The notes under the pieces were generated by a model that searched no databases, was not told the DNA's origin, and worked only from the letters and a program-made list of their open reading frames with translations. A stretch of DNA of 64,000 nt, from assembly GCA_963848295.1 (NCBI GenBank), contig CAWKDB010000010.1:3072001-3136000 (forward strand), in the 5' to 3' direction. Shown piece by piece: positions 11,448 to 33,999 of the stretch (positions are counted from its first letter, which is position 1; every line of letters starts with the position of its first letter). This DNA is from an uncultured delta proteobacterium. GTDB taxonomy: Bacteria > Myxococcota_A > Polyangia > Haliangiales > Haliangiaceae. The position numbers were made by a program, and so were the translations under genes.

Positions 11448-11541
11448 GCCGGTTGTCAAAGTGAACACCGTCCCCACGTATCATCGCGAAAGTGCTCCCC
11501 CGTGAGGCACCGGCCGGTTGTCAAAGTGAACACCGTCCCCA
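11448..11541 (+). repeat. Repeat-spacer-repeat unit 1: two identical 29-bp direct repeats with a 36-bp spacer
   Basis: GCCGGTTGTCAAAGTGAACACCGTCCCCA at 11448-11476 and 11513-11541. Confidence 0.95.
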
Positions 11542-13217
11542 TCGTCCTGTTGCTCGTCGCGAGCACCGCGATCGGGCATGCGCAGCCGGCTGCCGACCCG
11601 AAGCCCGATGACGCTGGCTACATCGGCCGCGACGTGACACCGCTCGAGATCGACGACTGCCCGGCGCCGCCCGATCTGTCGAAGGATCGGATCCGCCAGG
11701 TCGCGTCGGAGCACTACCAGCGCGGCGAGGTGCTCTACGCGCAGGGCGACTACCCCGGCGCGGTCGAGGAGCTGGTCTCGGCGTACTGCCTGTCGCCGTA
11801 CTACACCGTGTTGAAAGACATCGGCCAGGCGTACGAGCGCCAGCTCGAGTACGAAAAAGCGATCGGCTACCTGTCGCGCTACGTGTTCGCGATCCCGAAG
11901 ACCGCGCAGCGCGCCTCGGCATGCGAGGTCGATCCGCAGGTCGACGCGCAGAACGTCAAGGCGCGGATCACGCAGCTCGAGCGCTTGACTGCGAAGATCC
12001 TGGTCGATACGTCGCCGCCCCACGCGAAGCTGACGTTGTCAAACGACGCCGGCGTCCATGCGCGCGGCGAGTCGGGCTCGCTGCTCCAGGTTCCTGGCGG
12101 ACGCTACACGCTGACGATCGAGCTCGACGGCTACGTTACCCAGCATCGCGAGATCACCGCGAACATCGGCAAGCCGTACACCTACTTCGAGCGGCTCGAG
12201 CCGCAGACCGGCGAGCTCCGTGTCCAGGTCACGCCGAACGACGCGCGCCTGTTTCTCGACAAGCGCTCGGTCGGCACCGGCCGGATGGACGAGCAATTGC
12301 CGGCCGGGAAGTACTCGCTCGTCGTCGAGCTCGCCGACCACGTGTCCCAGCATCGCGACGTCGTCGTCGTGCCGAACCACACGACCGCGATCGCGGTCGA
12401 GCTCGAGGGCGAGCCGCAGTTCGGCCACCGCCAGTTGTTGGTCTACGGCGGCGTTGCCGGCGCGGTCGCCGGCGGTGCGCTGCTCGGCACGACGAGCGAC
12501 CCCGGCATCATCGCGATCGGGGTCGGCGCTGGCGCCGCCGCGGGCTTGCTCGGCACGTTGTACGGCACGCCGCACGATCTCGCGCTCGGCACCAGCGATC
12601 TCACGATCACGTCGTCGCTGATCGGCGGCGTCGTCGGTGTCGCGGCCGGCGCCCTGTTCACGGACCACACGAACGTGCTCGCTCCGCTCGGCGGCGGCGG
12701 GCTCGTGCTCGGCGCCGGCGTCGGCTACTACATCGCGGATCGGCTGCACACGCGACCCGGTGAAGCCGCGGTCGTCAACAGCGGCGCGTTGTGGGGCACC
12801 GCCGCCGGTGCATTGTTCGTCGCGAGCTTTCAGCCCGACACGCGGATCAGCGCGGGCATCGTGCTCAGCGGCCTCGGCATGGGCACGGTCGGCGGCGTCC
12901 TGCTCGCCCGCTACTTCCGGGTGAGTCGCGCGCACGCGGCGCTGATCGACGTCGGCGGTCTGGTCGGCACGCTCGGCGGCGTCGCGGCCGAGAACCTGAT
13001 CTTTCGCCAGCAGAACCAGACGTCGAGTCAGCAGGTCCAGAACGAGCACACCGCCGACTTCGCGCTCGGCGGCCTCGCGGTCGGCTTGATCCTCGCCGGT
13101 GTGCTGACCCGCGAGCTAGACCTACCCAAGATCGCGGTCACGCCCGCGATCGGCAGCACACCGTCTCCGGATGGCAAGACATCGTCCACGACGTTCGGCG
13201 TGCGTGGCGTGTTCTGA
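11502..13217 (+). CDS. Secreted/membrane TPR plus PEGA protein with Gly-rich hydrophobic C-terminus
   Basis: Signal peptide (IVLLLVASTAIGHA), TPR (YQRGEVLYAQGDYPGA), two PEGA-like repeats, C-terminal Phe; start 11502 or 11526 uncertain. Confidence 0.8.
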   Translation: MRHRPVVKVNTVPIVLLLVASTAIGHAQPAADPKPDDAGYIGRDVTPLEIDDCPAPPDLSKDRIRQVASEHYQRGEVLYAQGDYPGAVEELVSAYCLSPYYTVLKDIGQAYERQLEYEKAIGYLSRYVFAIPKTAQRASACEVDPQVDAQNVKARITQLERLTAKILVDTSPPHAKLTLSNDAGVHARGESGSLLQVPGGRYTLTIELDGYVTQHREITANIGKPYTYFERLEPQTGELRVQVTPNDARLFLDKRSVGTGRMDEQLPAGKYSLVVELADHVSQHRDVVVVPNHTTAIAVELEGEPQFGHRQLLVYGGVAGAVAGGALLGTTSDPGIIAIGVGAGAAAGLLGTLYGTPHDLALGTSDLTITSSLIGGVVGVAAGALFTDHTNVLAPLGGGGLVLGAGVGYYIADRLHTRPGEAAVVNSGALWGTAAGALFVASFQPDTRISAGIVLSGLGMGTVGGVLLARYFRVSRAHAALIDVGGLVGTLGGVAAENLIFRQQNQTSSQQVQNEHTADFALGGLAVGLILAGVLTRELDLPKIAVTPAIGSTPSPDGKTSSTTFGVRGVF

Positions 13218-13246
13218 GCCACCAGCACTGCCGCATGGAAGTACGG

Positions 13247-13290
13247 TTGTGATCGATCACAAACTTTACCTCGGTGCGTTCTGCTAGCAT
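13247..13290 (+). promoter_or_regulatory. Perfect 16-bp palindrome with a downstream extended -10-like element
   Basis: TTGTGATCGATCACAA at 13247-13262; TGcTAGCAT ending at 13290, 9 nt before the ATG at 13300. Confidence 0.5.
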
Positions 13291-13299
13291 GGTCGCACT

Positions 13300-14484
13300 A
13301 TGCGGATAGGGATCGCAGTTGTGTTTGTCGCCGCGCTCGCGAGCGCGTGCGGAAAAGTTAGCCCGGCGACCTGCATCCAGGGCTCCACCGAGTGCGCGAT
13401 GGAGTGCGTCGACCTGATGTCGGACGAGCTCAATTGCGGCGCCTGCGGCAATGCGTGCCCGGATCAGACGATGTGCAGCGCCGGCACCTGTGCGCCGGTC
13501 GCGGCGCAATGTCCGATCGGCTTCAAGACCTGCGCGTCGGGCTGCGCCGATCTCGACAACGACGCCACCAACTGCGGCGCGTGTGACAACACGTGCGACG
13601 GCGACTCGCGCTGCCTCGGCGGAACGTGCGCGGTGAGCAACTGGGAAACGATCCTCATGCAGCCGTCGCAGGGCATCATCGGGTTCTCGAATGCGGTGCC
13701 GGCCGGGTCCGTGCTCGTCTACGCGACGCTCTCGACGACCGACACGTTCGTCGCCTACACGTTCCCGTCGACCGGCCTGCCGAACGGCGCGTTCGCGACG
13801 CTCGCTGCGCCACCGACCGGATTCGGAACCTACGGCACTCCGATCACGACCCCGACCGGCGCGATCTATCTATTCACGGGCAACGCGGTCAACACGTTCG
13901 ATCCGGTCGGCAATTCGTGGTCCGCGCTCCCCGGTGTCACGCTGACCGACACGGTCAACGACTCGCAGGGCGCCTCGGATGACGACGGCAAGCTCTACGA
14001 GTTCGCGACCGACTCGATGGGCGGGAACTTCGTCGCACAGTTCGATCCCGCGACCGGCACGCAGAACTACTTCCCGTGGCCGGGCGATTCCCCGGACGAG
14101 CCGCGCGTCGCGTGGGACTCCAAGTCGAAGCGGGTGTACCTCGGGAGCTACTACGACGACCAGCTGTACTCGCTCGATCCCGCGACCGGCACGTTCACGT
14201 TGCTCGCCCCGCTGCCGGAGGTGACCGGCGGCATGTCGGATGCGTTCTGCACCGACAACCACGGCTTCCTTTACACCGTCGGCGATGCGTGCACCGGCGC
14301 GAACGAGTCTTGGGTCTACAACACCACCACCAATACGTGGAAGGCGTTCACTCCACTGCCGTTCGACCACGGTTGTGACGCGTCGTGCACGGTTACCGGC
14401 GACGGCTACCTTTACTTCTCCGCGTCGGAGACGAACAACAACATCGCGCGCTATCGGCTATTCGCGACGGAAGGGTCGAACTAA
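13300..14484 (+). CDS. Lipoprotein with myxobacterial Cys-rich repeats and a Kelch-like propeller
   Basis: LASAC lipobox; two CxDLxxDxxNCGACxxxC repeats; FDP..xW/F propeller blades. Confidence 0.8.
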   Translation: MRIGIAVVFVAALASACGKVSPATCIQGSTECAMECVDLMSDELNCGACGNACPDQTMCSAGTCAPVAAQCPIGFKTCASGCADLDNDATNCGACDNTCDGDSRCLGGTCAVSNWETILMQPSQGIIGFSNAVPAGSVLVYATLSTTDTFVAYTFPSTGLPNGAFATLAAPPTGFGTYGTPITTPTGAIYLFTGNAVNTFDPVGNSWSALPGVTLTDTVNDSQGASDDDGKLYEFATDSMGGNFVAQFDPATGTQNYFPWPGDSPDEPRVAWDSKSKRVYLGSYYDDQLYSLDPATGTFTLLAPLPEVTGGMSDAFCTDNHGFLYTVGDACTGANESWVYNTTTNTWKAFTPLPFDHGCDASCTVTGDGYLYFSASETNNNIARYRLFATEGSN

Positions 14485-15683
14485 TGAAGGCCGCGATTCA
14501 AGTCTCGATCCTGGCGCTCGCGCTCGCGGCGTGCGGCACCACGGCGACTCCGCCGAGTTGTCTCGGCGGCGCAACGGAGTGTGACAACACCTGCGTCGAC
14601 CTGATGGCGGATCAGGCGAACTGCGGGGCGTGCGGTATGGCGTGCGGAGCAGACACCGTATGCACCGCGGGCGCTTGCGCTCCGGTCGCACAGCTGTGCA
14701 ACCAGGGCGCGATGATGTGCGGCACCGACTGCGTCGATCCGATGGTCGATGTCGCGAACTGCGGCGCGTGTGGCATGGCGTGTACCGCCGACCAGCGTTG
14801 CCTCAGCGGCACGTGCTCCGACGACATCTGGACCGTAACCGAGAGCCACCCCCACGACAGCTACGCCGCGTTCGCCAATACGATCGACGCGAATGCACTT
14901 CTGGTCTATGTGCTCGACCCCGGAGCCGCGGCTGGCACGGGCCTCGAGACGTACACGTTGCCGACGACCGCGACGCCGACCGGGACCTATGCGCAGCTGA
15001 CCGCTCCTCCCCCTGCCGACAACCTCTCGTACTTCGACAATCCGTCGCTGGTCGGCACGACGCTGTACGCCGGGGCCGGCACGACGCTCTACGCGTACGA
15101 CACGACCACGGACACCTGGTCGACCGCCGGGACGCTGCCCGACTCGGTCAGTTCCGCCGAAACCGCGACCGATGGTACCTACGTTTATCTCTGGGCGGGC
15201 GACGGCTACCTCTTGCAGTTCGACCCTGCGACGACGACGACCGCACACTTTCTCGCGCCGCTTGCCACGCCGAGCGAGCCCCGGGTCGCCTGGGACAGTT
15301 CTACCAAGCAGCTCTACCTCGGCAGCTACGGGGGCCTCGCGTTGTGGTCGTTCGATCCCACCACGTCGACATTCAAGACACTCGGGTCGTTGCCGGCGGG
15401 AGCCAGCACGAGCGACGCGTTCTGCAGTGACAACCACGGTCACATCTTCACGACGAACACGTCATGCAGCGCCGACATGGTGGTGTGGATGTACAGCGCC
15501 GGCGCGGACGCGTGGTCGTCGTTCCCCGCGCTGCCCAACGATCACGGCTGTCAGGTGTCATGCACGACAACCGCCGACGGCTGGCTGTTCCTCGAGTCGA
15601 ATCAAGTGACCGTCGCTGCGGTATCCAGCGACGTGCTCGATCAGTATCGCCTCTTCGTTCCCGACGCCGGCGGCTCGAACTAA
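14484..15683 (+). CDS. Tandem paralog of 13300-14484 (Cys-rich repeats plus propeller lipoprotein)
   Basis: TAATG overlap; LAAC lipobox; shared EPRVAWDS, SDAFC.DNHG, DHGC and YRLF..GSN motifs. Confidence 0.8.
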   Translation: MKAAIQVSILALALAACGTTATPPSCLGGATECDNTCVDLMADQANCGACGMACGADTVCTAGACAPVAQLCNQGAMMCGTDCVDPMVDVANCGACGMACTADQRCLSGTCSDDIWTVTESHPHDSYAAFANTIDANALLVYVLDPGAAAGTGLETYTLPTTATPTGTYAQLTAPPPADNLSYFDNPSLVGTTLYAGAGTTLYAYDTTTDTWSTAGTLPDSVSSAETATDGTYVYLWAGDGYLLQFDPATTTTAHFLAPLATPSEPRVAWDSSTKQLYLGSYGGLALWSFDPTTSTFKTLGSLPAGASTSDAFCSDNHGHIFTTNTSCSADMVVWMYSAGADAWSSFPALPNDHGCQVSCTTTADGWLFLESNQVTVAAVSSDVLDQYRLFVPDAGGSN

Positions 15684-15712
15684 CTCCTCGCCCGGAGCGC
15701 GAGCGCGAGGCC

Positions 15713-16246
15713 CTACGGGGTCGGCGCCGGCGTGGCCATCGCCTTCTTCATGCACTCGCTCAGCCTTTGCGAGCTGTCCGCAGCCTGTTTGGTCTCCGCT
15801 TCCGAGAGCTTCGGCTGCTCTTCGTACATCATGTCTTTCGACCACGCGGTCATCGCGTCGCTGACCTTCGTCGCGCACGCGGCGTCTTTGCACGCGCACA
15901 TCTGATTCGCAAAGTCGCCGAGCTTCGCGAGCGCCGCGTCCTTGTCCAAGCCGCCGGCGTCGGCCTTCTGCTTCTTGTCGCGGTCACCGAAGTCCATGCA
16001 GGCCGACGTCTTGTCCTCGGTGAGCTCGCCGTCGATCGCGAGCAGGCAATCCACCATCTTGGCCATCTTCGGATCTTTGAGGTCCTCGTGGCACGAGGCG
16101 ATCGACTTGTCCCGCTTTGCCGGATCGGCCTCGTGGTCCTGATCCTTCGAGACCTTCGCCAGCATCTTGTCGTAGAGGCGTTCGCACTTGTCGCCGGCTT
16201 TACAACCGACCGCGAGGACGACTGCCACGAGGAGCTTGACCATCAC
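15713..16246 (-). CDS. Cys-rich helical lipoprotein, function unknown
   Basis: LAVGC lipobox; MCACKDAACATKV motif. Confidence 0.75.
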   Translation of the reverse strand: MMVKLLVAVVLAVGCKAGDKCERLYDKMLAKVSKDQDHEADPAKRDKSIASCHEDLKDPKMAKMVDCLLAIDGELTEDKTSACMDFGDRDKKQKADAGGLDKDAALAKLGDFANQMCACKDAACATKVSDAMTAWSKDMMYEEQPKLSEAETKQAADSSQRLSECMKKAMATPAPTP

Positions 16247-16251
16247 CCAGC

Positions 16252-17736
<1,485 letters not shown>

Positions 17737-17755
17737 GAGCGTGATTATCGCAGCG

Positions 17756-19141
17756 TCAACGAAACAGCGCGAGTGCGCCGACGACACCGATCGCGACCGC
17801 GATCAGGGCTGCTACCGCCAACCACAGCCCGCGCGGCGCCGCCTTCGCCTTCGGCCGGACGACTGGGTGGGCGGCGGATGGGTTCGGGGTCGCGAGCGGG
17901 TAGAGCGTCGGGGGTGGCGGGACCCCAATCGTCGTCTCGGCGTGCCCGACCGCGTTGCCGCGCAGCGCGGGCGACGAGATCGCCGGAGGCTGCGATGGTC
18001 GGTTCGATGGTGCTCGCTCCCGGGCGTCAGCGCTGCCGGATGCGGTCGGGTCCGGCGCCGGGATCGAGACCGGCATCGGCAACGGTACGGGCGGTGCGGT
18101 CGGCATGACCACCGGCGCCGGCCTCGGGGCCAGCATCATCGGCTCGGCGCCGAACCGCGAGGGCGTGATCACCCCGGAAGCTCCCGCACCTTGCGCCGGC
18201 ATCTCGACCGCGGAGATCGCGGGCAACGACGGCCGGGCGCGCCGGATCACGGCGCGGACCGCGGTCAGGGTCGGCCGCTCCGCCGGGTCGCTCGCCATCA
18301 TCGCGACGACGAGCTGGACGAGCTCGGCGGGAACGCCGCCGAGCGCACCGAGCACGCTGTCCGGCGTGCCGCGCTCGTCGGTGTCGAACGAGCCGTCGCT
18401 GTAGCGCCGCGGCCGTTCGCCGGTGAGCAGCTCGTACGACATCACGCCGAGCGCGTAGATATCGGTGTGGTGATCGACCTTCGCGCCGCGCAGCTGCTCG
18501 GGCGACATGTAATCCGGCGTGCCGAGCCGGGTGCCGGTCGCGGTGCGAAACGCGGCAGGTCCGGCCGCAGGCATCAACTTCGCGAGCCCGAAGTCGAGCA
18601 GCCGGACATCGAACCGGCCGGTGTGCGCCACGAGGAACACGTTGTCCGGCTTGAGATCGCGATGGACGAAGCCCTTGTCGTGCGCCGCCGACAACGCCGA
18701 GGCGATCTCGTCGATCACGATCGCCGCCTCGCGCACGTGCAGGGGGCCGCGCTTGACCCGCGTGCGCAGCGACTCGCCATCGAGCAGATCCATGACGAGG
18801 AACTGCCGGCCGTCGGGCAACGTGCCGAACGCGAAGATGTCGACGATGTTCGGGTGGCCGATCTGATTGACCGAGCGCGCCTCGGTGATGAAGCGCTCCA
18901 CCATCGTCGGATCCTTCGACCGCGAAGGGTGCAGCACCTTGATCGCGGCGCGCTTGCCGATCAGCGGGTGCTGGGCGGCGTAGACGACGCCCATGCCGCC
19001 GCGGCCGAGCTCGCCGGTGACCGAGTAACCGCCGACGTCGGTGCCCGGCGCGATCTCCACCGTCTGGATCTCGTCGCTGTCGTCGAAGGTCGGCGGTATC
19101 GCCATCGCCTCGGTCGGTCGCGATTCGTCCCCACTGTCCAC
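17756..19141 (-). CDS. Membrane Ser/Thr kinase, tandem paralog of 16252-17736
   Basis: HRDLKPDN, DFG, GTPDYMSPE; near-identical EARSVN.IGHPNIVDIFAFGTLPDGR segment. Confidence 0.92.
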   Translation of the reverse strand: MDSGDESRPTEAMAIPPTFDDSDEIQTVEIAPGTDVGGYSVTGELGRGGMGVVYAAQHPLIGKRAAIKVLHPSRSKDPTMVERFITEARSVNQIGHPNIVDIFAFGTLPDGRQFLVMDLLDGESLRTRVKRGPLHVREAAIVIDEIASALSAAHDKGFVHRDLKPDNVFLVAHTGRFDVRLLDFGLAKLMPAAGPAAFRTATGTRLGTPDYMSPEQLRGAKVDHHTDIYALGVMSYELLTGERPRRYSDGSFDTDERGTPDSVLGALGGVPAELVQLVVAMMASDPAERPTLTAVRAVIRRARPSLPAISAVEMPAQGAGASGVITPSRFGAEPMMLAPRPAPVVMPTAPPVPLPMPVSIPAPDPTASGSADARERAPSNRPSQPPAISSPALRGNAVGHAETTIGVPPPPTLYPLATPNPSAAHPVVRPKAKAAPRGLWLAVAALIAVAIGVVGALALFR

Positions 19142-19156
19142 TGCCTACATTGTAGG

Positions 19157-20473
19157 TCAAAGCGTATCGAGGAACGCGATCAATGCGTCCCGATCCGCCT
19201 CGGCGGCGTTGCGGAACGCGTCGCTCGCCGGCTGCGCTTCGCCGCCGTGCCAGAGGATCGCTTCTTCGAGCGTGCGAGCGCGCCCGTCGTGCAAGAACGA
19301 ACCGTTCTCGAGCACGACGTTCGTGAGGCCGATGCCCCACAGCGGCAGCGTACGCCACTCGCTGCCGGTCGCCGCGAAGTCCGGGCGGTTGTCGGCCAGG
19401 CCGTCGCCCATGTCGTGAAGTAACAAATCCGTGTAGGGATGGATCGTCTGATGCGCGAGCTCGGCGATCGGCGAATCGCCGGTCACGAGCGTCGGCACGT
19501 GGCAACTCGAGCAGCCGAAGTCGTCGAACCGCTGGCGACCGAGCGTGGCTTGCGCGTCGCGAGGCGCCGCCGCCGGCACGCCGATCGTCGAGACGAAGAA
19601 CGCCATCTGCTCGAGCTGCATGTCGCTGACGTCCGGATCGCTGCCGTCGGTCGGTGGGAACACGCGGTTCGTCAGGCCGATGTCGTTGAGCGCGGCGGCG
19701 GCGGCCTGCAGGTGCAACGTCGACGTGTTCGCTTTCATGCCGAACCGGCCGACGACCGTCGCTTGCTGCTCGTCGTCCCACACCATGTTGACCCGGCCCG
19801 AGATGCCATCGCCATCGGCGTCGTCCGGATCTGCCATCGCCATCAGCGTGTCGTCGTCGACCGCTGCGAGCAGACCCAGGCCGAAGATCGGCGGCGCCTG
19901 GCGATACGACGTCAAGGTGCCGTCGGGCAGCATCGCGCCCATCGGCGTCAGGATCGTCAGCGCCGGCGCGCGCAGCGAGACCGGCGTGCCGTCGCCATAC
20001 GTCGTCGGCATCTCGGTCCACGCTTGCGTCACGACGACCTCGGACAACATGCCGTCGACCGCGTGATCTTGCAGCTGCAAGCCGTAGCCCGGCACCGGCA
20101 CGTCGCCGCCCGGCACCGAGGGCGTTCCGGTCGCGAAGCTGCAGCGCACGAGCGCGTCGGAGACGTACGCGCCTTCCGGCGAGATCAGCGACGGGCCGAT
20201 CTCGGACAAGCCGCGACCGAACGACGAGTGACAGCCGGCGCACGAGTCGTTGTTGTAGAGCGGCCCGAGCTGCATCACCCAGTGAAACGCGAACGGCCCT
20301 TCGCCGGCTTGCCAGGTCGCCGCGTCATCGGACGTCAGGTTCGCGGCGGGATGGGTGAACGCGGTCGCGGTGCGATCGTCGACGGTGGTGTCGCCGCCTT
20401 GGCGCTGCTCGCTCGGAGTGTCGTCGCCGCAGCCGACGAGCGCGATCAAGCCGAACGCGAGCGTGAACCTCAC
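19157..20473 (-). CDS. Di-heme oxidoreductase family (DUF1111-like) lipoprotein
   Basis: LGPLYNNDSCAGCH, FGLGLL, DPDDADGDGISGR, GRFGMKA, GCSSCH, PYTDLLLHDMG, WRTLPLWG, FLHDGRARTLEEAILWHGGEA. Confidence 0.9.
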   Translation of the reverse strand: MRFTLAFGLIALVGCGDDTPSEQRQGGDTTVDDRTATAFTHPAANLTSDDAATWQAGEGPFAFHWVMQLGPLYNNDSCAGCHSSFGRGLSEIGPSLISPEGAYVSDALVRCSFATGTPSVPGGDVPVPGYGLQLQDHAVDGMLSEVVVTQAWTEMPTTYGDGTPVSLRAPALTILTPMGAMLPDGTLTSYRQAPPIFGLGLLAAVDDDTLMAMADPDDADGDGISGRVNMVWDDEQQATVVGRFGMKANTSTLHLQAAAAALNDIGLTNRVFPPTDGSDPDVSDMQLEQMAFFVSTIGVPAAAPRDAQATLGRQRFDDFGCSSCHVPTLVTGDSPIAELAHQTIHPYTDLLLHDMGDGLADNRPDFAATGSEWRTLPLWGIGLTNVVLENGSFLHDGRARTLEEAILWHGGEAQPASDAFRNAAEADRDALIAFLDTL

Positions 20474-22550: not shown

Positions 22551-23354
22551 GTGCGCGCAGTAGTGCTTGGCGTCGCGGCGGTCGCGGTCACCGGCGGCAC
22601 CGCATGGGCGAACCCGATGGCGTTGCCGTTCACCTATACGACCGAGACCCTCGCGCCCGGCGCGGTCGAGATCGAGCAGTTCGTCGACATGACGCCGCTG
22701 CGCGCGGTGGGCCCGTTCAACCTGCGCACGCCGTATCTGGCATCGCAGTTCCAGACCGAGATCGAGATCGGCATCGCGCCTCGGCTCGAGCTCGGCCTCT
22801 ACTTCACCTACGTGCCCGCGCCGTCGGGCGACCTGATGGACACCGCGGTGATGCCCGAGGGCAATGGCATCAAGCAACGCGTTCGCTACACGTTCGCGGA
22901 TCCCGGCTGCTGGCCGATCGACGTCGGCGTCTACGGCGAGCTGACCGAGAACGAGCGCGAGCTCGAGCTCGAGGGCAAGATCTTGCTGCAGCGCCGATTC
23001 GGCAAGCTGCGCGTCGCCGCGAACCTATGGACCGAGTACGAGTTCTACTTCTCCGGCCAACGCGACATCGTGCTGAACCCGACCCTCGGCGCGACCTACG
23101 AGATCACGCCGAGCTTCCACGTCGGCATCGATTCATTCCTCCGCGGCGAATATCCGCGCAACCCACCGCCGCCATCGCGCATCTTCGCGCTCGGCCCCGA
23201 GGCCTACGTCGGCCCGGCCGTCATGTACAACTTCGGCAAGCTGTGGTGGTCCGTCGGCTTCTACGGCCGAGTCACCGACACCGACCACCTCCTCGAGCCC
23301 GGCGAAGTCTACGGCAAGTGGTGGCTGCGCTCGATGATCGGCTACAACCTCTGA
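22551..23354 (+). CDS. Putative outer-membrane beta-barrel protein
   Basis: Signal peptide; PFTY...TL.PG..EIEQF, EIEIGI..RLELGLY; alternating beta strands; ends in IGYNL. Confidence 0.7.
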   Translation: MRAVVLGVAAVAVTGGTAWANPMALPFTYTTETLAPGAVEIEQFVDMTPLRAVGPFNLRTPYLASQFQTEIEIGIAPRLELGLYFTYVPAPSGDLMDTAVMPEGNGIKQRVRYTFADPGCWPIDVGVYGELTENERELELEGKILLQRRFGKLRVAANLWTEYEFYFSGQRDIVLNPTLGATYEITPSFHVGIDSFLRGEYPRNPPPPSRIFALGPEAYVGPAVMYNFGKLWWSVGFYGRVTDTDHLLEPGEVYGKWWLRSMIGYNL

Positions 23355-23463
23355 GGGGACGCTGTCTCTTTTGTCAACCAGACCCTCTCGGCCAACCCTC
23401 GATGATCATTGTGAATGAGTTGGTGACGCTGTCTCTATTGTCACTTTACAAGTGAGCGTCACC
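23355..23463 (+). repeat. Repeat-spacer-repeat unit 2 (subtype B), with a hairpin formed by the second copy
   Basis: GGGACGCTGTCTCTTTTGTCAAC (23356-23378) and GTGACGCTGTCTCTATTGTCACT (23423-23445); GGTGACGCT pairs with AGCGTCACC (23455-23463). Confidence 0.9.
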
Positions 23464-24855: not shown

Positions 24856-24941
24856 CGCGGCGAGTATAGAGATTTCCGGTGAACCGCGCCCACCGATGAT
24901 GATGCGCCGCGTTGCCCGGTTCCCGAGGTAGGATGGAGGGC

Positions 24942-26186: not shown

Positions 26187-26301
26187 CTCGTGCTTACATA
26201 AAGCTGAGCTTATCGCGCCCGCGCTCGTCGAGGAACCTGCTGCACGGCGATGGCTTTTCGGCTATCGTAGTAACTCAGAGGGTTTGCATCCTCGAAGTAT
26301 C

Positions 26302-28572
26302 GTGGGGCAGCCGGCGCAACAGCGTTCGCGTGATCTCGCGCCGGGCGACAAGCTCGGCCGCTACGACCTGATCCGTCAGATCGCGGTCGGCGGCATGGGC
26401 GAGCTCTACCTGGCGCGGACGCTCGGCGTCGAGGGCTTCGAGAAGCTCGTCGTGTTGAAGCGGATCCTGCCGATTCACGTTTCGACTCCGAGCCTGGTCG
26501 AGATGTTCCTCGGTGAAGCGCGCCTGTCCGCCACGCTCCGTCACGCGAACATCGCGCAGGTCTACGACATCGGCGTCGAGGGCAGCGAGTACTTCTTCAC
26601 GATGGAGTACGTCCACGGCGAGGACCTCGGCCGGATCGCGGCGACCGCCGCCGACAACGGTGTGCCGTTGTCACTCGATGCCTCGCTGACGTTGATCGCC
26701 GGTATGTGCGCGGGGCTGCATTACGCCCACGAAAAAGCGGGCCCGGATCGCAAGCCGCTCGGGATCGTGCACCGCGATGTGTCGCCACCCAACGTACTCG
26801 TGAGCTACGACGGAGGCGTCAAGCTCGTCGACTTCGGCATCGCGCGCGCGGTGACCAAGCCGACGTCCGCGGCCGGCGGGCTCAAAGGCAAGCTCGCGTA
26901 TATGTCGCCGGAGCGCTGCACGAACGATCCGACGATCGATCGCCGCAGCGACGTCTACTCGCTCGGCACGCTGCTATTCGAGCTCGCGACCGGCAGGTTG
27001 CCGTTCGTCGCCGATAGCGAGGATGCGCTCGTCGCGAAGATCATCGGAGAGGACGCTCCATCTGCGCGCGACATCGTGCCGGATTTCCCCGAGACGCTCG
27101 CGAAGATCATCGCGCGGGCGCTCGCGCGCGATCGAGCGGACCGCTACGCGACCGCGCTCGAGATGCAGACCGCGGTCGAGGATTTCGCGCGCGAGAGTCG
27201 CTTGCGGATCTCCGGGCTCGTGCTCGCGCGGCTGATGTCGACGCTGTTCCCGGCGCGACTCGAAGAATGGGATCACGCGCGCAAGCAGGGGGCGTTCTTC
27301 GTCGAACAGCACATCGTCCAGACGATGATCGAGGGCGACGATCGCTCGGGCCCGATCGATGCGTCCGGTCAAGCGCGACCGCCGACGGTCACCGAGATGA
27401 ACGCGATCCCCGACACCAGGCCCACCGCGGCGAGCGGTCCGGCGCTAGCGCCACCGCCGGTCATAGCCCGCGCGGCGACGCCTCCGAGTGGAACCTCTCG
27501 ACCGTCGGCGCCGGGCGCGGCGACGCCTCCGAGCGGAACCTCTCGACCGTCGGCGCCGGTTGCGGCGACGCCTCCGAGCGGAACGTCTCGACCGTCGGCG
27601 CCGGGCGTGACGCCCCCGGCAGTCGCTCGCGCGCCGACGCCAGCGCCCGTCGTTGTAGCGCGCGCATCGACGCCTGCATCGGCAGCGGCAACACACCCGT
27701 CAACGCCGGCGCCCGTGGTCGCTCGCGCGCCGACGCCCGTGGCCACGCCGGTGATCACTCGCGCCCCCACGCCGCCACCGACATCCACTCGCGAACCGAC
27801 GCCGATTCCAGCGCCTGCGCGCGTCGTGTCCCCTGCGGCGGACGCGCCCGCGGTCACGCGGTCGAGACCGATCTCGCGCGCGTTGCCGCGAGTCGCGCCA
27901 GCGCCGAACGGCGATGCGATGCAAGGGTTGCCGGTCGCGGCGGCGGGAACGCTGATCAGCTCGCCCGCGCCCGACGCCGCCGTTCAACCGGTGAGCTCCG
28001 TTGGCGATGTCACGGCGCAGGTCCGTCGGCCGACGAAGCCGGTGAGGCGCGCGCCGTGGATCGCGGGCGGCTTGTTGGTCGCGGCTGGCGCGACCGCGGC
28101 ATGGGCGTTCTCGTTCGGACCGCTCGCGGGCCAAACGACGATCACCTCGACCTCAGCGCCGGCCGTCGTCGAGGAATCGCCGAAGGCGGTCGTGACTCCG
28201 CCGGTCGTGACCCCGCCGGCGGTCGTGACCCCGCCCGCAGTCGTGACCCCGCCGGTCGCCGAGGCAACAACAGCAACGGTCGTGCCTGCGCCGCCGCCGG
28301 TGGTGACGCCCCCGCCGGCCGTGCCAACGCGGGCGGTCGCGCCCCCGAAGGCAGTCGCTCAGCCGCCGGTCGCGAAGAAGATCGTCAAGCGTCCGAAGCG
28401 CGCGCTGGCGCCTCGTCACCCAAAACCGAGCGCGCTCGAACCGAAGCCGGATAAGCTGCCGGAGGCGCAACCCGCGCCGTCGCCACCAGTGCCCGCGCGA
28501 GACCCGAAGCCCGAGACCAAAGACCAGCCTTGGAACGCAGACTCTCCCTTCATGCCGGTTCGCGCGCACTAG
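26302..28572 (+). CDS. Membrane Ser/Thr kinase with long Pro/Ala linker
   Basis: IAVGGMGEL, LKR, HRDVSPPN, DFG, GKLAYMSPE; TM helix; start approximate. Confidence 0.92.
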   Translation: MGQPAQQRSRDLAPGDKLGRYDLIRQIAVGGMGELYLARTLGVEGFEKLVVLKRILPIHVSTPSLVEMFLGEARLSATLRHANIAQVYDIGVEGSEYFFTMEYVHGEDLGRIAATAADNGVPLSLDASLTLIAGMCAGLHYAHEKAGPDRKPLGIVHRDVSPPNVLVSYDGGVKLVDFGIARAVTKPTSAAGGLKGKLAYMSPERCTNDPTIDRRSDVYSLGTLLFELATGRLPFVADSEDALVAKIIGEDAPSARDIVPDFPETLAKIIARALARDRADRYATALEMQTAVEDFARESRLRISGLVLARLMSTLFPARLEEWDHARKQGAFFVEQHIVQTMIEGDDRSGPIDASGQARPPTVTEMNAIPDTRPTAASGPALAPPPVIARAATPPSGTSRPSAPGAATPPSGTSRPSAPVAATPPSGTSRPSAPGVTPPAVARAPTPAPVVVARASTPASAAATHPSTPAPVVARAPTPVATPVITRAPTPPPTSTREPTPIPAPARVVSPAADAPAVTRSRPISRALPRVAPAPNGDAMQGLPVAAAGTLISSPAPDAAVQPVSSVGDVTAQVRRPTKPVRRAPWIAGGLLVAAGATAAWAFSFGPLAGQTTITSTSAPAVVEESPKAVVTPPVVTPPAVVTPPAVVTPPVAEATTATVVPAPPPVVTPPPAVPTRAVAPPKAVAQPPVAKKIVKRPKRALAPRHPKPSALEPKPDKLPEAQPAPSPPVPARDPKPETKDQPWNADSPFMPVRAH
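27472..27606 (+). repeat. Intragenic tandem repeat, 3 x 45 bp (AATPPSGTSRPSAP[G/V])
   Basis: Three near-identical units start at 27472, 27517 and 27562. Confidence 0.9.
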
Positions 28573-29297
28573 CGCTCGCGCTCGTGCTCGCCGGCGCGAC
28601 GTCCGCACACGCGGCGCCGCATGGCGTCGACGCGAAGGCGCAGTTCGATCGCGGTGCTGGCGCGTACAATAACAACGACTACGCCGGGGCCTCCGATGCG
28701 TTCGCAAAGTCGTTCGCGCTCGAACCCGATCCGGAGACGCTGTTCGCGTGGGCACAGGCGGAGCGCAAGCTCGGGCACTGCGGTAAAGCGATCGAGCTCT
28801 ACGACAAGCTCCTCGCGATGCAGCTACCTGCCGAAAATCGCGACGCCGTGACGAAGCTGCGCGCCGAGTGTCAGCAGCTCGCCGATCAGGTAGCGACGGC
28901 ACACCCGCCACCGATCGAGCCCGAGCACCATGCGCCGCCGATCGCGCCGCGGTTGGTCGATCAACCCGAGCATTGGTGGCATGACGGCTTCGGCGACACC
29001 TTGCTCGTGATCGGGGTCGCCGGGCTCGCGGTCGGAGCCGTGTGCCTCGTGCAGGCGCACACCGCCGATCAAGACAAGGCGACGGCGACGAACTACTTCG
29101 ACTACAAAGCCGACGTCGATCGAGCCAGCTCCCGCGGCCAGCTCGGCGTGATCTTCAGCGCCGCCGGCGGGGTCGTGCTCGCCGCGAGCATCGTGCACTA
29201 CATCGCGCACGGCCATTCGTCACACGCACCAGCGTCGTCGGCCTCGGCATGGGTCACGCCGAACGGCGGCGGCCTCGTGTGGTCCCGGCGATTTTAG
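28530..29297 (+). CDS. Secreted TPR protein with C-terminal hydrophobic segments
   Basis: ALALALVLAGATSAHA signal; TPR (LFAWAQAERKLGHC..AI.LY); overlaps the kinase stop; start uncertain. Confidence 0.75.
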   Translation: MERRLSLHAGSRALALALVLAGATSAHAAPHGVDAKAQFDRGAGAYNNNDYAGASDAFAKSFALEPDPETLFAWAQAERKLGHCGKAIELYDKLLAMQLPAENRDAVTKLRAECQQLADQVATAHPPPIEPEHHAPPIAPRLVDQPEHWWHDGFGDTLLVIGVAGLAVGAVCLVQAHTADQDKATATNYFDYKADVDRASSRGQLGVIFSAAGGVVLAASIVHYIAHGHSSHAPASSASAWVTPNGGGLVWSRRF

Positions 29298-29372
29298 TGA
29301 TCCGCGAGGCCGGCGGCGAGCTGAATGTACTCCTCGATGTACTGGTCGGCGCGGGTCGTCGACCTCGTCGCG

Positions 29373-31736
29373 TCACCAGTCCTTGATGCGAAGCTGGCTC
29401 CAGCAATCCTTCTTGCCATCGCCGAACACCGACGGCCGGGTCGCGGTCTTCACGTTGATGTCCGTACCTGCGTTCGAGCGACACAGCTTGGTGCCCTCGG
29501 GGCGCGGCTTCTTCCCGATGTACACGAGCACGGGTCGTTGCTCGTAAAGGGTCACGCCGTGACGCTTCAGCCCGTCGACGAGCAACGGGAACTCGGCCGC
29601 GTGATGGTCCGTGTACGCATAGTCGTACAGGTTGTTGTAGGCCATGATGCAGTGCAGATCGCCCGAGGCCTCCGACGGTGATCGGGCGAGATCCATGTTC
29701 GGATCATTCGTCGGCCAGGCTCTCGGCTTGCCGTCGAGGTCGACGAGGTACGCCGTGCCAGCCGCGACGAAGCTCTTGTACACCCCGACGTCCTCGGAGC
29801 GATCGCCGTGATGATGTATGCCGACGGCGTGTCCGAGCTCGTGCGCGGCCGCGTACGCCTGGTTCGCGGCGACCGATCGGGCACTTTGCGTCTTGGCGGC
29901 CTCCGCTGCGGCCTTGTAGTCGATGTCGAGCTCGATGACGTGGCCCGGCGAGGCCGCGGTGTGATCGCGAGCGGCGGCTCTCGACGCCATATCACTGCCA
30001 CCCGGCGGCTTGTCGGGCACGGTCTCGGCGATTCCGCCGGGCGTGGGCGTGGGCTTGTTGTACGCGACGACGCCGTGCTGTCCGCCGCCCCTGGCGAACG
30101 ACGAGTTCGCGTTGACGAGGTGGGTGTCCTTCGGAAGCTCGCCATCGATGCAGACGTGCACGTCGACGGCCGGGGCGGCGGCGGCCTCGAAGATCGCCGC
30201 GGCGGCCCCGAGATCGTTCCCGGTCTTGTTGAGCAGGAACAGGTCCTTCTTCTTTGGATCGAGGCGCACGTGGGTGCCGTTGACGACCGCGCCGCGATAT
30301 TCTTCGTACAGGGTCAGGCCGTCACCATCGAAGTTGTTGCCGTCGAAGTGCTCCTTGTCGCTCGTGGCGTCGATGTCGGTGAGCTGCTCGGCGTGCTCCC
30401 ACGCGTCGGCGATGTGGTTGTCGTTATCGTCGAGGGGGATCTTCGCGTCGGGCACGTTCGCACCTGCGAGGTGCGCGTCCAGGCCTTCGCCGGTCTTGAG
30501 CTGCACGTGCGCGCGCAGCTTGCCGTACGCGCCGAAGTCCTTGCTTTGCACCATCGCCATCACGAACGCACCCTGATCCGGCGTTGTCGTCAGCGTCGTG
30601 TCGGTCAGTTGCTGCACGCCGCTCAGCTTGGCGACGAGCGGATGCCACACGAGATCGTTATCCGCCTTGCCGTTTTCCGGCATGTTGATCGAGTACCCCG
30701 GCTCGTGTGACGACTCGAGCGCGTATCTGACCTGGAACGGGACGTTCGTGACCCTCTCGCCGGGGTTGGCTTTCTTCACGAGGTAGACCCGGAATGCGAC
30801 CGTGTCGAGCTTGCCGTCCTTGGCGCCGGGGTGGGGGCCGATCGGCACGAACTTCGAATAGGTTGCGAGCTGGGCGCCGGGGACGCTCGCGATCGGCTCG
30901 AGGATCGCCTCGTAGGTCTCGGGCTGGCCGCCGATCGACACGACGAGGTCGGTCGTGATCGTCCGCGAGCCGACCTTCTTTTCGGTCGCGGTCGGAGGAT
31001 TGAGCTTGTCGATCGGAAACTCCCGCGACTCGTGAAAACCGATCTGGAAGCCCGTGCTGGTCTTGGCGACGGTCAGGTCGTTGTCTTGCGCGAGACGCCC
31101 CATCGCTTGTTTCAAGGCGACCGCACTCGGTCCGAGGACCGCCCACTGTGCGGCGGTCGACAGGTTCGCGTTGGCCATCGATGCCGCGAACGAGTCTGCG
31201 CTCGAGCCGGCGACCTGACCGCCGTCGACCGTCTGGTCGGCGTTGGGCGGAGCATGCACCTTGATCGTCCCAGCGCCCTTGGACGGGCCGAACCCGGGTG
31301 ACAGCGACAACTCGCCCTGCGTGCTCTGCCGGGAGTAACGCAAGGAAAAATACAGCTTCGCGATGTCGAGGTCGGAGTGCGCGCGGAGATGGGACGAGCT
31401 CGTCGTGTCACAGAACTTCGAGTCGGTCTGGATCTGATAATCGAACGAGCCTTGCCCGGTCAGCGGCTTGGCGCCCGCGGGCATCGGATCGGTCGGGACG
31501 TCGAGCGAGATCTCGTCGGTATCGTCGGACATCGGGAATGCCTCGGAGCCGATCGAGACGGATTCGGTGAATGTCATCTGGCTTCGCTTCATGCTCCCGC
31601 ACGCATTGGCTTCGGTCACCGTGCCCGTCTCGGTGACCGTACGCTTGAACGTCACCTGGACGCGAACCATGCGATCCGGCGACGCGGACGCTGCGGTGGC
31701 GAGAAAGATCAGAAGGAACGCCCCCCGGTTGAGCAT
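29373..31736 (-). CDS. Large secreted zinc metallopeptidase-like protein
   Basis: Signal peptide; AHELGHAVGIHH zinc motif; downstream CIM Met-turn-like; acidic DDNDNHIADAWE and DGDGLTLYEEY loops. Confidence 0.7.
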   Translation of the reverse strand: MLNRGAFLLIFLATAASASPDRMVRVQVTFKRTVTETGTVTEANACGSMKRSQMTFTESVSIGSEAFPMSDDTDEISLDVPTDPMPAGAKPLTGQGSFDYQIQTDSKFCDTTSSSHLRAHSDLDIAKLYFSLRYSRQSTQGELSLSPGFGPSKGAGTIKVHAPPNADQTVDGGQVAGSSADSFAASMANANLSTAAQWAVLGPSAVALKQAMGRLAQDNDLTVAKTSTGFQIGFHESREFPIDKLNPPTATEKKVGSRTITTDLVVSIGGQPETYEAILEPIASVPGAQLATYSKFVPIGPHPGAKDGKLDTVAFRVYLVKKANPGERVTNVPFQVRYALESSHEPGYSINMPENGKADNDLVWHPLVAKLSGVQQLTDTTLTTTPDQGAFVMAMVQSKDFGAYGKLRAHVQLKTGEGLDAHLAGANVPDAKIPLDDNDNHIADAWEHAEQLTDIDATSDKEHFDGNNFDGDGLTLYEEYRGAVVNGTHVRLDPKKKDLFLLNKTGNDLGAAAAIFEAAAAPAVDVHVCIDGELPKDTHLVNANSSFARGGGQHGVVAYNKPTPTPGGIAETVPDKPPGGSDMASRAAARDHTAASPGHVIELDIDYKAAAEAAKTQSARSVAANQAYAAAHELGHAVGIHHHGDRSEDVGVYKSFVAAGTAYLVDLDGKPRAWPTNDPNMDLARSPSEASGDLHCIMAYNNLYDYAYTDHHAAEFPLLVDGLKRHGVTLYEQRPVLVYIGKKPRPEGTKLCRSNAGTDINVKTATRPSVFGDGKKDCWSQLRIKDW

Positions 31737-31824
31737 CCCGCCACTATATACGAGACGATCGCAGCGGTGACACGATGGTAGTGTCGTTCATCGTCGGTGA
31801 GGCTCGTGTGCGCCCCGTTCTTGG

Positions 31825-32475
31825 TCAGCCGATTTCTTCGGCGTAGGTCATCACGAGATACATCACCGCATCGCTGCGTCCCGGGTTGCGGTACGCGTGC
31901 GGCGTATCGGCCTCGAACAAGATCGAGTCGCCCGCTTCGAGGCGATGCGTGTCGCCCGCGACATCGATCTCGATCGTGCCGGCGGTAACGACGAGGTTCT
32001 CGCTCGTGCCCGGCGGGTGCGCATCGGCTTCTTCGCTGCTGCCTGCCGCGAGTCGGAGCTCGTAGAACTCGATCCGGCGCGGCTCGTCGAACGGGAACAA
32101 CGCTCGCGAGCTAAAGCTCCGATCCTTGCTCGTGAGAATCTTCGACTCGGAGCTGCGCAACACGAGCGCTCCCGATTGCGTGCGGGCGCTGATCAACGCC
32201 GAGAACGTGACCTCGAGTGCACGGGCGATCTTCCACAGCACGTTGATCGTCGGCGCGCTTTGACCGAGCTCGATCTGGCCAAGCATCGCGCGCGATACCC
32301 CCGAGATCTGAGCCAGTCGCTCGAGGGACAAACCGCGCCGCGTCCGCAACCGTCGCAAGTTCGAGCCGACGACGGGGGCGAGATCGGTCGCTTCGCTCGG
32401 CGCTACCGGTGCCGCAGCAGCCTTGGGAGCGACCGCGTCCGCTGTTTTCGCCGACTTCTTCTTGACCAGGCCCAC
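31825..32475 (-). CDS. XRE HTH plus cupin transcriptional regulator (SutR/PuuR-like)
   Basis: NLRRLR..RGLSLERLA..SGVSRAMLGQIE.GQSAPT; cupin HPPGT.E, GDSI.F.AD.PH.Y.N. Confidence 0.92.
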   Translation of the reverse strand: MGLVKKKSAKTADAVAPKAAAAPVAPSEATDLAPVVGSNLRRLRTRRGLSLERLAQISGVSRAMLGQIELGQSAPTINVLWKIARALEVTFSALISARTQSGALVLRSSESKILTSKDRSFSSRALFPFDEPRRIEFYELRLAAGSSEEADAHPPGTSENLVVTAGTIEIDVAGDTHRLEAGDSILFEADTPHAYRNPGRSDAVMYLVMTYAEEIG

Positions 32476-32520
32476 TGTCGAACCAGATCTGTATCCGTCT
32501 TAACGGACAAGAGCAAGCCA

Positions 32521-32608
32521 GGGACGGTGTTCACTTTGTCAACCGACGAGCACGCGGTGGCCCAACGATCACCGGCCCTTACCTGGGGACGGTGTTCACT
32601 TTGTCAAC
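32521..32608 (+). repeat. Repeat-spacer-repeat unit 3: two identical 23-bp cores with a 42-bp spacer
   Basis: GGGACGGTGTTCACTTTGTCAAC at 32521-32543 and 32586-32608; one mismatch to the reverse complement of unit 1. Confidence 0.95.
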
Positions 32609-33825
32609 TATGGGTGAGCAGTCGCCCCGGGACTCGCATAGGCCGATTCGCCATGCAGCGAGCCATCGAGCCCGTCGTGCTCGGTCTCCGCATCGACGCG
32701 CAGGCCGATCGTCAAATCGATCGCCTTCAGCAGCGCGAACGTGACCATCGCAGCCCAAGCGCCGGCGGCTCCGACCGCGATCGCCTGCTTGCCGAGCAGC
32801 GACAACCCTCCGCCGTGACCATCGTTGAGCGTCGCCCGCGCGAACACGCCGGTAAGCAGCGCACCGGTCGCGCCGCCGACACCGTGCACGCCGAACGCGT
32901 CGAGCGCGTCGTCGTAGCCGAGCCTGGTCTTCGCGACGACGGCCCCGTAACAGATCGCGCCGGCCGCGACGCCGATCACGAGCGCGACGACCGGCGAGAC
33001 GAAGCCCGCCGCCGGCGTGATCGCGACCAGCCCCGCGACTAAGCCCGACGCGACCCCGAGCATCGTCGCTTTGCGGATCCGTGCGCCTTCGACGAGCGTC
33101 CACGTCAGCGCGCCAGCGGCCGCCGCGAGGTGCGTGTTGATCAACGCTAGCGCGGCGCTGCTGTTCGCGCCGGTCGCCGAACCGGCGTTGAACCCGAACC
33201 AGCCAAACCACAATAAGCCGGCGCCGAGCACCGTCATCGTCAGGTCGTGCGGCGGATGGCGCGTCGCCGGATAACCTCGGCGCTTGCCGATCACGAGCGC
33301 GCATACGAGCGCGGACACGCCCGACGAGAGATGCACGACCGTACCGCCTGCGAAGTCGATCGCCCCGAGCCGGGCGAGCCAGCCGCCGTCGCCCCAAGTC
33401 CAATGCGCGATCGGATCGTAGACCAGCGTCGTCCACGCGAGCGTGAACACGACGAACGCCGAGAACTTGATCCGCTCCGCGAATGCGCCCGAGATCAGCG
33501 CCGGCGTGATGACCGCGAACATGCATTGGTACGCGACGAACGCGAGGTGCGGCACCGTGCCGTGTACCGACTCCGGTCCGATGCCGTCGAGCGCCGCGAA
33601 GTCCAGGCCGCCGATCACGCCGTGCCAGCTCGGGCCAAACGCGAGCGTGTAGCCGATCAGCACGAACTGCACGCTGACCAGGCCCAGCGCGAAGAAGCTG
33701 TGCATGAACGTCGACAGCACGTTCTTGCCTTGGACCATGCCGCCGTAGAACAGCGCGAGCCCGGGCGTCATCAGCATCACGAGCGCGGTGGAGATGAGCA
33801 GCCAGGCGGTGTCGCCGGAGTTCAT
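32608..33825 (-). CDS. amtB: Ammonium transporter
   Basis: MTPGLALFYGG, AERIKF, DFAGGTVVH, LWFGWFGFNAGS, DDALDAFGVHG. Confidence 0.97.
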   Translation of the reverse strand: MNSGDTAWLLISTALVMLMTPGLALFYGGMVQGKNVLSTFMHSFFALGLVSVQFVLIGYTLAFGPSWHGVIGGLDFAALDGIGPESVHGTVPHLAFVAYQCMFAVITPALISGAFAERIKFSAFVVFTLAWTTLVYDPIAHWTWGDGGWLARLGAIDFAGGTVVHLSSGVSALVCALVIGKRRGYPATRHPPHDLTMTVLGAGLLWFGWFGFNAGSATGANSSAALALINTHLAAAAGALTWTLVEGARIRKATMLGVASGLVAGLVAITPAAGFVSPVVALVIGVAAGAICYGAVVAKTRLGYDDALDAFGVHGVGGATGALLTGVFARATLNDGHGGGLSLLGKQAIAVGAAGAWAAMVTFALLKAIDLTIGLRVDAETEHDGLDGSLHGESAYASPGATAHP

Positions 33826-33897
33826 CTAGCGACTGTGCTGTGCACCGTGTTTCCGGCGCGTAACCGGCGGGAAAAACCTATCGAGGGCGCACTGGGC

Positions 33898-33999
33898 AAA
33901 GTGACAAAAGAGACAGCGTCACCATGACTTTATGTGTGATTGCAATCGCTTGCGCGATCGGGCTTGTCGCGCAAGGTGACAAAAGAGACAGCGTCCCTA
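33898..33999 (-). repeat. Repeat-spacer-repeat unit 4 (subtype B)
   Basis: Identical GTGACAAAAGAGACAGCGTC at 33901-33920 and 33976-33995; reverse complement matches unit 2. Confidence 0.9.

Follow-up and report, generated by a model that had tools for sequence, protein, structure and literature searches.

TIRtrons, as described by Di Nocera, De Gregorio and Rocco (2013, PMC3733652), are composed of a RAYT-like gene, TIRYT, located between inverted repeats which are not REPs and which carry a G-rich tag. In the parts of that account devoted to these repeats (TIRs), the families are moderate-sized, with one family per gene, and are dispersed as singles, dimers and clusters; the tag GGGGWSAS is the consensus for the majority, not for all, of the published TIRs. 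In the classification of Quentin et al. (2018, PMC6006769), the sections on TnpA-Y1 subclass 2.1.2 describe long proteins with an HUH motif, a catalytic tyrosine motif and a C-terminal domain similar to Bac_DnaA_C or HTH_23, occurring without REP hairpins. According to the same sections, subclass 2.1 probably corresponds to TIRYT, the recognition of repeats by the helix-turn-helix is left open, and the key motifs are (i) NHVH or NH[YF]H, (ii) YIELNP or Y[IV]HLNP and (iii) SS. The subject of the present analysis is a family of paired repeats, four units of which are found in a 64,000-nt stretch of DNA (the window) from the genome under study, G000, an uncultured delta proteobacterium (assembly of 7.78 Mb, 85% complete). 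These four units are very likely solo TIRtron ends, and it is likely that the cognate transposase both spreads such ends behind stop codons and rewrites the resident repeats in place, the latter being suggested by the comparison with a sister species, G104.

A scan of the whole assembly allowing mismatches, the check proposed in an earlier note on this DNA, revealed 243 copies of the repeat, divided into type A (72), type B (158) and type C (13). The exact pattern is matched 210 times and the reversed pattern not once, thus the family is not a product of chance; G104 and G053 carry 188 and 149 copies, respectively. The copies are mostly paired with a fixed period, not single or randomly spaced: 195 of the 243 have a same-strand partner within 130 nt, the period of the A pairs being 65 bp in 23 cases and 64 bp in two, and that of 56 B pairs 73-75 bp. 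After three weak copies are dropped, the remaining 240 form 120 clusters, namely 72 direct doublets, 22 singles, nine inverted pairs and 17 larger mixes. Only two clusters lie inside genes predicted with a codon-usage gene finder, one of them a chance match.

Two single-copy genes have been identified by reading the DNA between inward-facing doublets, and both score below the Pfam cut-off. The A transposase gene (C10:1101402-1102322; C10, C2 and C11 are contigs of G000) has A doublets on both sides in inverted orientation, and the B transposase gene (C10:2679494-2680393) is likewise enclosed by inverted B doublets. The two proteins are 52% identical, are the only strong members in the assembly and are encoded on the same contig as the window, outside it. 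They support the trans-acting HUH (RAYT-type) transposase postulated in the earlier note, which had correctly reported no HUH transposase gene in the window itself. Nine other genes of G000 match Pfam Y1_Tnp; none has such a repeat beside it, and they were rejected as drivers of the family. Seven of these nine (L001-L009) are close paralogues, several possess a conserved upstream leader of ~150 nt and two look frameshifted.

The residues H59-x-H61 and Y117 are invariant in 37/37 homologues. The predicted model of transposase B (pLDDT 91) matches TnpA-REP 4er8 (E 2.4e-6) as well as transposases of IS200/IS605; the match of its C-terminal part is to 3pvp, the DNA-binding domain of DnaA (TM 0.80 on the target, E 0.0096, root-mean-square deviation 1.9 over 94 columns). 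Profile matches stay below the respective cut-offs: NF047646 at E 5e-11 (curated cut-off), PF01797 at E 0.001 for transposase A with no match for B, and Bac_DnaA_C at E 0.001 and HTH_23 at E 0.12 for transposase B. A search of PDB sequences with a five-sequence profile gave nothing below E 0.09. Among 90 other genomes of the genus, 49 encode a homologue at the threshold of E 1e-25. Tagged inverted repeats flank the gene on both sides in all of the 33 best-scoring homologous loci, which are nearly all one per genome and were counted by hand, and in 21 of the 33 the repeat is doubled on at least one side at 54-67 bp, mostly 60-62 bp. Each locus has its own repeat sequence, close proteins in the tree have close repeats, and the tag is the sole part of the repeat conserved across all homologues. 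In G000 the tag fits GGGGWSAS at seven of eight positions, with G for A at the seventh; the A form occurs in the homologues at L136, L139, L146, L153, L158, L024 and L026. At least ten dispersed doublets are present in 20 of the 49 genomes with a homologue versus three of the 41 without, in a tally that ignores kinship and includes two unpublished genomes, G010 and G057. The doublet is a transposon-end design and the arrangement that of TIRYT/TIRtrons, the transposases probably belonging to subclass 2.1 of TnpA-Y1. Of the structures considered in the earlier note, a REP/BIME-like one does not hold, since the repeats form no hairpin and bear the TIR tag of TIRYT/subclass 2.1, and the reading as paired sites bound by a protein is probably correct if the protein is taken to be the transposase, the repeats being its putative binding sites.

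The evidence for change in place comes from a single pair of species, G000 and G104, with no representative of a repeat-carrying outgroup. The two genomes are 89% identical over the amt-upp region, 89% in a small intergenic sample and 76% at fourfold-degenerate sites, the last corresponding to a divergence of ~0.31 after correction. From the DNA around the listed G104 repeats, 42 pairings of the 70 G104 doublets with 41 different G000 doublets were obtained; all four window units occupy the same sites in G104, and the transposase genes are orthologous and unmoved. Orthologous spacers are 0.38-0.85 identical, against a mean of 0.51 and a 99th percentile of 0.68 for non-orthologous ones. The orthologue ranks first among all matches for 10 of 12 A spacers and for 11 of 28 B spacers, hence these spacers have been inherited, and the orthologous spacers of lowest identity may be replacements.

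The B repeats next to inherited spacers have nevertheless changed. Position 11 is G in 112 of 113 G104 copies and T in 128 of 151 G000 copies; orthologous B copies differ G/T at this position in 45 of 56 cases, and at inherited sites in 18 of 22, compared with 1.6% at neutral (fourfold-degenerate) sites. Position 14 has flipped between A and T in 12 of the 22 inherited copies (3.1% at neutral sites), and at inherited sites the agreement of alleles at B positions 1 and 14 does not exceed that after shuffling. The copies inside one doublet are not independent, the 22 inherited B copies being 11 doublets, and these 11 still leave an excess of change far beyond mutation. Two truncated relic B repeats in G000 retain G, thus T is likely the new state. 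The helix-turn-helix core of transposase A is identical in both species; that of transposase B differs at several residues, including the residue before the conserved RQ. This contrast between A and B, two cases in two species, points to the helix-turn-helix as the part that recognises the repeats. Type switches at one site with related flanks have been found as well, A/C twice (c13, L184) and A/B once (L171). Type C occupies 13 sites of G000 (for example C10:689053, 4577125 and 4827376), at two of which G104 has type A instead. An inherited spacer between two changed repeats allows the overwriting of a repeat to be separated from the replacement of a whole element, and on these sequences we regard overwriting driven by the transposase as quite probable.

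A possible order of events is as follows. On double-stranded DNA, the DnaA-like C-terminal helix-turn-helix would read that part of the repeat which varies, two sites at a fixed distance would together form the end, with contacts to A/T residues of the spacer, and the HUH domain would nick at or near the conserved G-rich tag. The end would then be copied to a site behind a stop codon, giving a short duplication and a tail. Resident ends may be nicked again, followed by repair or strand exchange templated by another copy of the repeat. The 24-nt repeat would thereby be overwritten and the middle of the spacer inherited, and the adjacent 10-15 nt would diverge two to three times faster than neutral. 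The divergence of A spacers in ten pairs has this form, with values of 0.93 for the 14 nt at the start, 0.32 for the middle and 0.69 for the 13 nt at the end.

Ordinary homologous recombination between short repeats could also homogenise doublets that the transposase had only spread, leaving it no rewriting role; conversion among repeats requires no dedicated enzyme. Copies of the same doublet share alleles above chance at B positions 11, 14 and 21 in G000 (p 0.0002, 0.012 and 0.003), as local slippage or conversion could give, and A position 18 is equal in both copies of the doublet in 23/25 and 20/21 cases. However, the 72 A repeats keep their locus alleles and the B repeats lose them, the sweep runs in one direction, towards T, although G/C is strongly preferred at neutral sites, and it coincides with a helix-turn-helix change in B only. 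Repeats of 24-27 bp are in addition at the lower limit for RecA-dependent exchange. Recombination without a rewriting enzyme is therefore judged unlikely.

Several observations weigh against rewriting by the transposase. The A repeats barely change, differing at 17 of 576 positions across 12 pairs, a figure that the search pattern itself partly constrains, and 19 of 20 inherited copies agree at A position 18, without scrambling; since these repeats keep locus alleles and yet do not decay, selection or repair from the partner repeat is indicated for them, not exchange with distant copies. In B spacers the contrast of edge and middle is weak (1.1, 0.8, 1.08 and 0.71). The fast-changing sequence 3' of the repeats could not be traced to other sites or to DNA within 150-200 nt. 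Three genomes carry doublets without a detected homologue, and no cognate transposase of type C was found in the 85%-complete assembly. The link between helix-turn-helix and repeat change consists of two cases in one species pair, and the binding, nick site and template are putative. Among spacers, no near-identical pair was found, the maximum being 0.78 among 91 G000 doublets (one duplicated contig excluded) and 0.85 among 70 in G104; recent spreading is thus not shown in the form of young doublets. An origin of the tails by copying from other loci or nearby DNA was rejected, there being no excess besides local duplications. Shared 5' flanks are seen among the inner B repeats of G000 as well as G104, and for type A in G104 alone. 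Short duplications resembling slippage begin at repeat edges at C10:2951123, 3006417 and 2881261 and at L096 and L106, and one spacer is filled wholly by a reiterated motif of 8-10 nt.

The outline of repeat, spacer and repeat, with direct repeats of ~24 nt, a fixed period and spacers that are all different, also recalls CRISPR-like mini-arrays, in which spacers of foreign DNA would be processed into small guide RNAs. The spacers are, however, homologous to one another. The A spacers (23) and B spacers (55) have A/T residues at fixed positions, ~10-11 nt apart in B, the A spacers end in a conserved 8-nt motif, and the ungapped pairwise identity is graded, 0.40 for A and 0.35 for B versus 0.30 for flanks. 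The sequences of the genome that match them best are other spacers, and at orthologous sites the spacers are inherited with point changes. The earlier note was therefore wrong in calling the spacers mutually unrelated, and neither variable captured spacers nor the processed mini-array RNAs it had proposed find support in spacers that are homologous, without a genomic source and unfolded. Capture of spacers from G000 itself was rejected, the matches of 18-19 nt elsewhere being near the ceiling of shuffles; 34 bits are reached in the genome by 20% of 85 spacers versus 5% of 425 shuffles, an excess that is partly spacer-to-spacer. Unit 4, the one unit searched against phages, and unit 3, the one searched against plasmids, gave no match below E 1. 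A role as RNA hairpins was rejected as well, as the spacers fold no better than shuffles as RNA (z < -2 in 0-1/25 A and 1/55 B per strand); the folds pointed out in the earlier note are incidental, and the hairpin of unit 4 is not kept in G104. As DNA, B spacers fold slightly better than shuffles (z < -2 in 8-9/55). As to cas genes, which the earlier note did not see in the window, no cas1 was found in the 85%-complete assembly with a search whose control was positive in 7/14 known genomes. The long arrays that had been sought do not occur, same-strand runs comprising three repeats at most, and the same design forms the ends of the transposase genes. The CRISPR-like reading is highly improbable and has already been largely refuted.

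The four units lie in the window where the earlier note had placed them, each as a direct pair of 24-nt cores, and the periods of 65, 67, 65 and 75 bp were measured again. The A and B consensus cores differ at five of 23 positions, in agreement with the 18/23 identity given before; the cores of units 3 and 4 themselves are identical at 17/23. The features of the units and of their neighbours, in window positions, are:

11516..11539, minus strand: unit 1 outer repeat (R1), type A, 24-nt core
11475..11515, minus strand: unit 1 spacer, 41 nt; its G104 counterpart (L188) is 83% identical
11451..11474, minus strand: unit 1 inner repeat (R2), type A, convergent with the kinase gene, whose stop is 10 nt away
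11526-13217, plus strand: TPR/PEGA gene, with a likely GTG start and first codons from the reverse complement of the unit 1 outer repeat
23356..23379, plus strand: unit 2 R1, type B, 1 nt past the stop of gene 22563-23354
23380..23422, plus strand: unit 2 spacer, 43 nt, a short one among B spacers; its G104 counterpart (L132) has 51 nt and is only 43% identical
23423..23446, plus strand: unit 2 R2, type B, convergent with the argininosuccinate lyase gene, whose stop is 17 nt away
32521..32544, plus strand: unit 3 R1, type A, 24-nt core
32545..32585, plus strand: unit 3 spacer, 41 nt; its G104 counterpart (L076 AA) is 76% identical
32586..32609, plus strand: unit 3 R2, type A, sharing bases with the stop codon of amt
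32608..33825, minus strand: ammonium transporter gene amt, between the inward-facing units 3 and 4, in its native place beside upp
33877..33881, plus strand (left), and 33996-34000 (right): unit 4 target duplication CCTAT, 5 nt, in a single copy at empty sites (L050, L051, L053, L054, L058)
33882..33898, minus strand: unit 4 variable tail, 17 nt, part of the insertion, of other length and sequence in G104 and absent at the empty sites of relatives
33899..33922, minus strand: unit 4 R2, type B, 24-nt core
33923..33973, minus strand: unit 4 spacer, 51 nt; its G104 counterpart (L076 BB) is 61% identical
33974..33997, minus strand: unit 4 R1, type B, its first base being the last base of the upp stop codon
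33997..34629, minus strand: uracil phosphoribosyltransferase gene upp, whose stop is the docking site of unit 4

Insertion of the element is seen at upp. Relatives free of the element have one copy of the 5-nt sequence, and in G000 it is duplicated around the doublet and its 17-nt tail; in G104 the 5-nt duplication encloses a doublet with a different tail. The empty orthologous sites that the earlier note had suggested looking for thus exist. The two flanks together allowed 68 of 100 G104 clusters to be placed. In G000, 49 of these sites are occupied and 19 were classed as empty, but several of the 19 are artefacts, or contain a relic or a different insert. At the clean empty sites L092, L106, L126 and L201 a whole doublet with its tail has been added 0-4 nt past the host stop codon. 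A precise 23-nt indel of a single repeat, without duplication, occurs at L111; no outgroup for it was found.

The docking at stop codons is polar and real. Outer (5') ends facing a stop lie within 12 nt of it in 75 of 94 cases and inner ends in 21 of 57; in roomy gaps, with 60-600 nt to spare, 18 of 22 are docked at the stop versus 3.6 expected. Avoidance of promoters may account for part of it. Each of the window units touches a stop or lies at most 7 nt from it, as noted earlier: the kinase TGA ends at 11440, 7 nt from the wider boundary then used and 10 nt from the 24-nt core, the TGA before unit 2 ends at 23354, and the TAG codons of amt (32608-32610) and upp (33997-33999) both overlap the repeat cores of units 3 and 4. 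A promoter role of the repeats was rejected: in reverse complement a TTGACA-like hexamer is present, and by eye no -10 hexamer was seen at 16-19 nt (no scan made).

This position raises the question of a host function, in which the doublets would be domesticated sites for the control of 3' ends or translation, or for chromosome organisation near the origin, kept by purifying selection while point mutations tracked the specificity of the protein. The repeats do not decay, 49 of 68 placeable sites are occupied in both genomes, and most stop-facing outer ends (75 of 94) lie in the range in which E. coli REPs are reported to affect translation, REPs within 15 nt of stops being known from the part of PMC12306157 that deals with them. 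One repeat, moreover, supplies a start codon. Around dnaA (C10:2945059) and the switch in GC skew there are 19 clusters within 100 kb (3.7 expected) and 43 within 350 kb (13 expected). Clustering near dnaA was not seen in G011, in a sample of 28 of ~210 doublets, and on this sample it was rejected as a general rule; the repeats show no leading-strand bias (41 vs 31). Selection also leaves the two-way flips between tolerated alleles at position 14 unexplained, a REP-like RNA role lacks a hairpin, and this repeat family is absent at the same genes in most relatives. Host function in place of rewriting is accordingly rather unlikely, whereas a host function alongside rewriting can be accommodated, above all for type A.

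The neighbours of the units are a Ser/Thr kinase, the TPR/PEGA protein, an unassigned gene, argininosuccinate lyase, the ammonium transporter and uracil phosphoribosyltransferase. The gene before unit 2, earlier called OMP (outer membrane protein), gave no match in Pfam, and Rfam gave zero matches in the window. The kinase stop overlaps the next start, or adjoins it within a few bases, in most of 14 element-free relatives; in both G000 and G104 the likely GTG start of the TPR/PEGA gene is derived from the repeat, and from these alignments unit 1 has likely taken over the start codon. Contigs from four DNA sequencing runs were identical fragments or belonged to other organisms, with no strain-level variation at the units. 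A short fragment of a DDE_3 transposase (4594-5010, plus strand) is unrelated to the repeats as far as seen.

Inward-facing pairs of clusters often enclose one or two host genes in a TIRtron-like manner, for example at 32521-33997 in the window. Among 20 cases of neighbouring clusters at most 3 kb apart, 13 face inward (two of them being the transposase genes), five outward and two in the same direction. Amt as cargo moved by units 3 and 4 was rejected: it is adjacent to upp also in relatives without the units, so that a cargo move is not shown.

Other arrangements of the repeats were also recorded. A MITE-like subfamily has inverted A repeats around a 35-nt loop (C10:157870, 1334430 and 1354723; C11:116761), the first 14-16 nt of the loop being kept in 4/4 copies and in G104. 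Two elements of four repeats, formed by inward doublet pairs (C10:2239510-2239800 and 2736583-2736874), are present in G104 too; their inner pieces are unrelated in sequence and equal in length, 95 nt. A long palindromic insert with reiterated short motifs lies at C2:1339320-1339487, where G104 has a single A repeat by a promoter-like sequence. In G011, chimeric doublets at C3:2758930, 4451162 and 4577584 consist of two repeats apparently from different families.

The cellular role of RAYT-type transposases is a long-open question, and for the large TIRYT/subclass 2.1 group no described mechanism was found in the open-licence literature. G000 and its sister offer a natural experiment, in which a single genome encodes two paralogous transposases and each of them has a non-hairpin repeat of its own; of these repeats, one swept to a new base at ~80% of its old sites alongside a helix-turn-helix change and the other did not. 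The overwriting idea raised for REPINs becomes directly testable with one protein of 316 residues and a substrate of 100 bp. If confirmed, it would amount to a site-specific activity of short-patch DNA rewriting. A bolder proposal, which we offer as speculative and doubtful, is that this TIRYT clade is a domesticated genome editor: paired sites would be installed behind stop codons, ~130 of them overwritten in place upon a change of the DNA-binding helix and the adjacent 10-15 bases mutagenised, so that protein and host-function sites would co-evolve by directed rewriting and not by selection at each site.

Compared with CRISPR mini-arrays, the units share the outline of repeat, spacer and repeat and the fixed period; they differ in spacers that are mutually homologous and inherited with drift, in the lack of cas1 and in the link to a Y1 transposase. 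The likeness to REPIN-RAYT systems lies in a single-copy transposase and vertically inherited repeats. In the parts of PMC5581495 concerned, REPs are tied to RAYT groups 2 and 3 only. The relevant part of the REPORTH preprint (10.1101/2024.10.14.618302) reports that the REPIN type varies between strains at 13 of 20 fully conserved sites and considers overwriting by the resident RAYT possible; for lanthipeptide genes, a proposal of diversification by TnpA-REP was made and afterwards qualified (10.1101/2020.03.09.984088). In contrast to REPINs, which are inverted hairpin doublets of group 2 or 3 RAYTs with evidence at the level of type labels, the doublets described here are direct and non-hairpin. 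They also depart from REPs, REPINs and BIMEs in that 72 of 120 clusters are direct doublets and nine are simple inverted pairs, and in that the profile contains no GTAG tag.

The transposases resemble subclass 2.1.2 in a C-terminal DnaA-like helix-turn-helix, according to the predicted structure and weak profile matches, and differ from it in their motifs NHIH/SHIH, YIHNNP and WTSH, which are close, not identical, the comparison being by motif. With TIRtrons the system shares cognate genes with inverted repeats on both sides, HUH and tyrosine motifs, and a dispersed repeat family in G000. The differences relate to the ends, which here are direct doublets of fixed period with a semi-conserved spacer, the solo doublet being the main form, and to the tag, which in G000 has G where the published GGGGWSAS has A. 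The TIR 'dimers' counted in Fig. 9 of PMC3733652 may include tandem ones, their orientation not being given in the text compared, and that text on TIRs contains no comparison of orthologous sites, target duplication, stop docking or rewriting. Nor was an account of fixed-period direct doublets as TIRtron ends, of their docking at stops or of base-level overwriting found in the open-licence literature. TIRtrons and dispersed TIR families are thus already known, and overwriting has been suggested for REPINs; what the “solo end” doublets of G000 add to these systems is change in place, at the level of single bases, at inherited sites.

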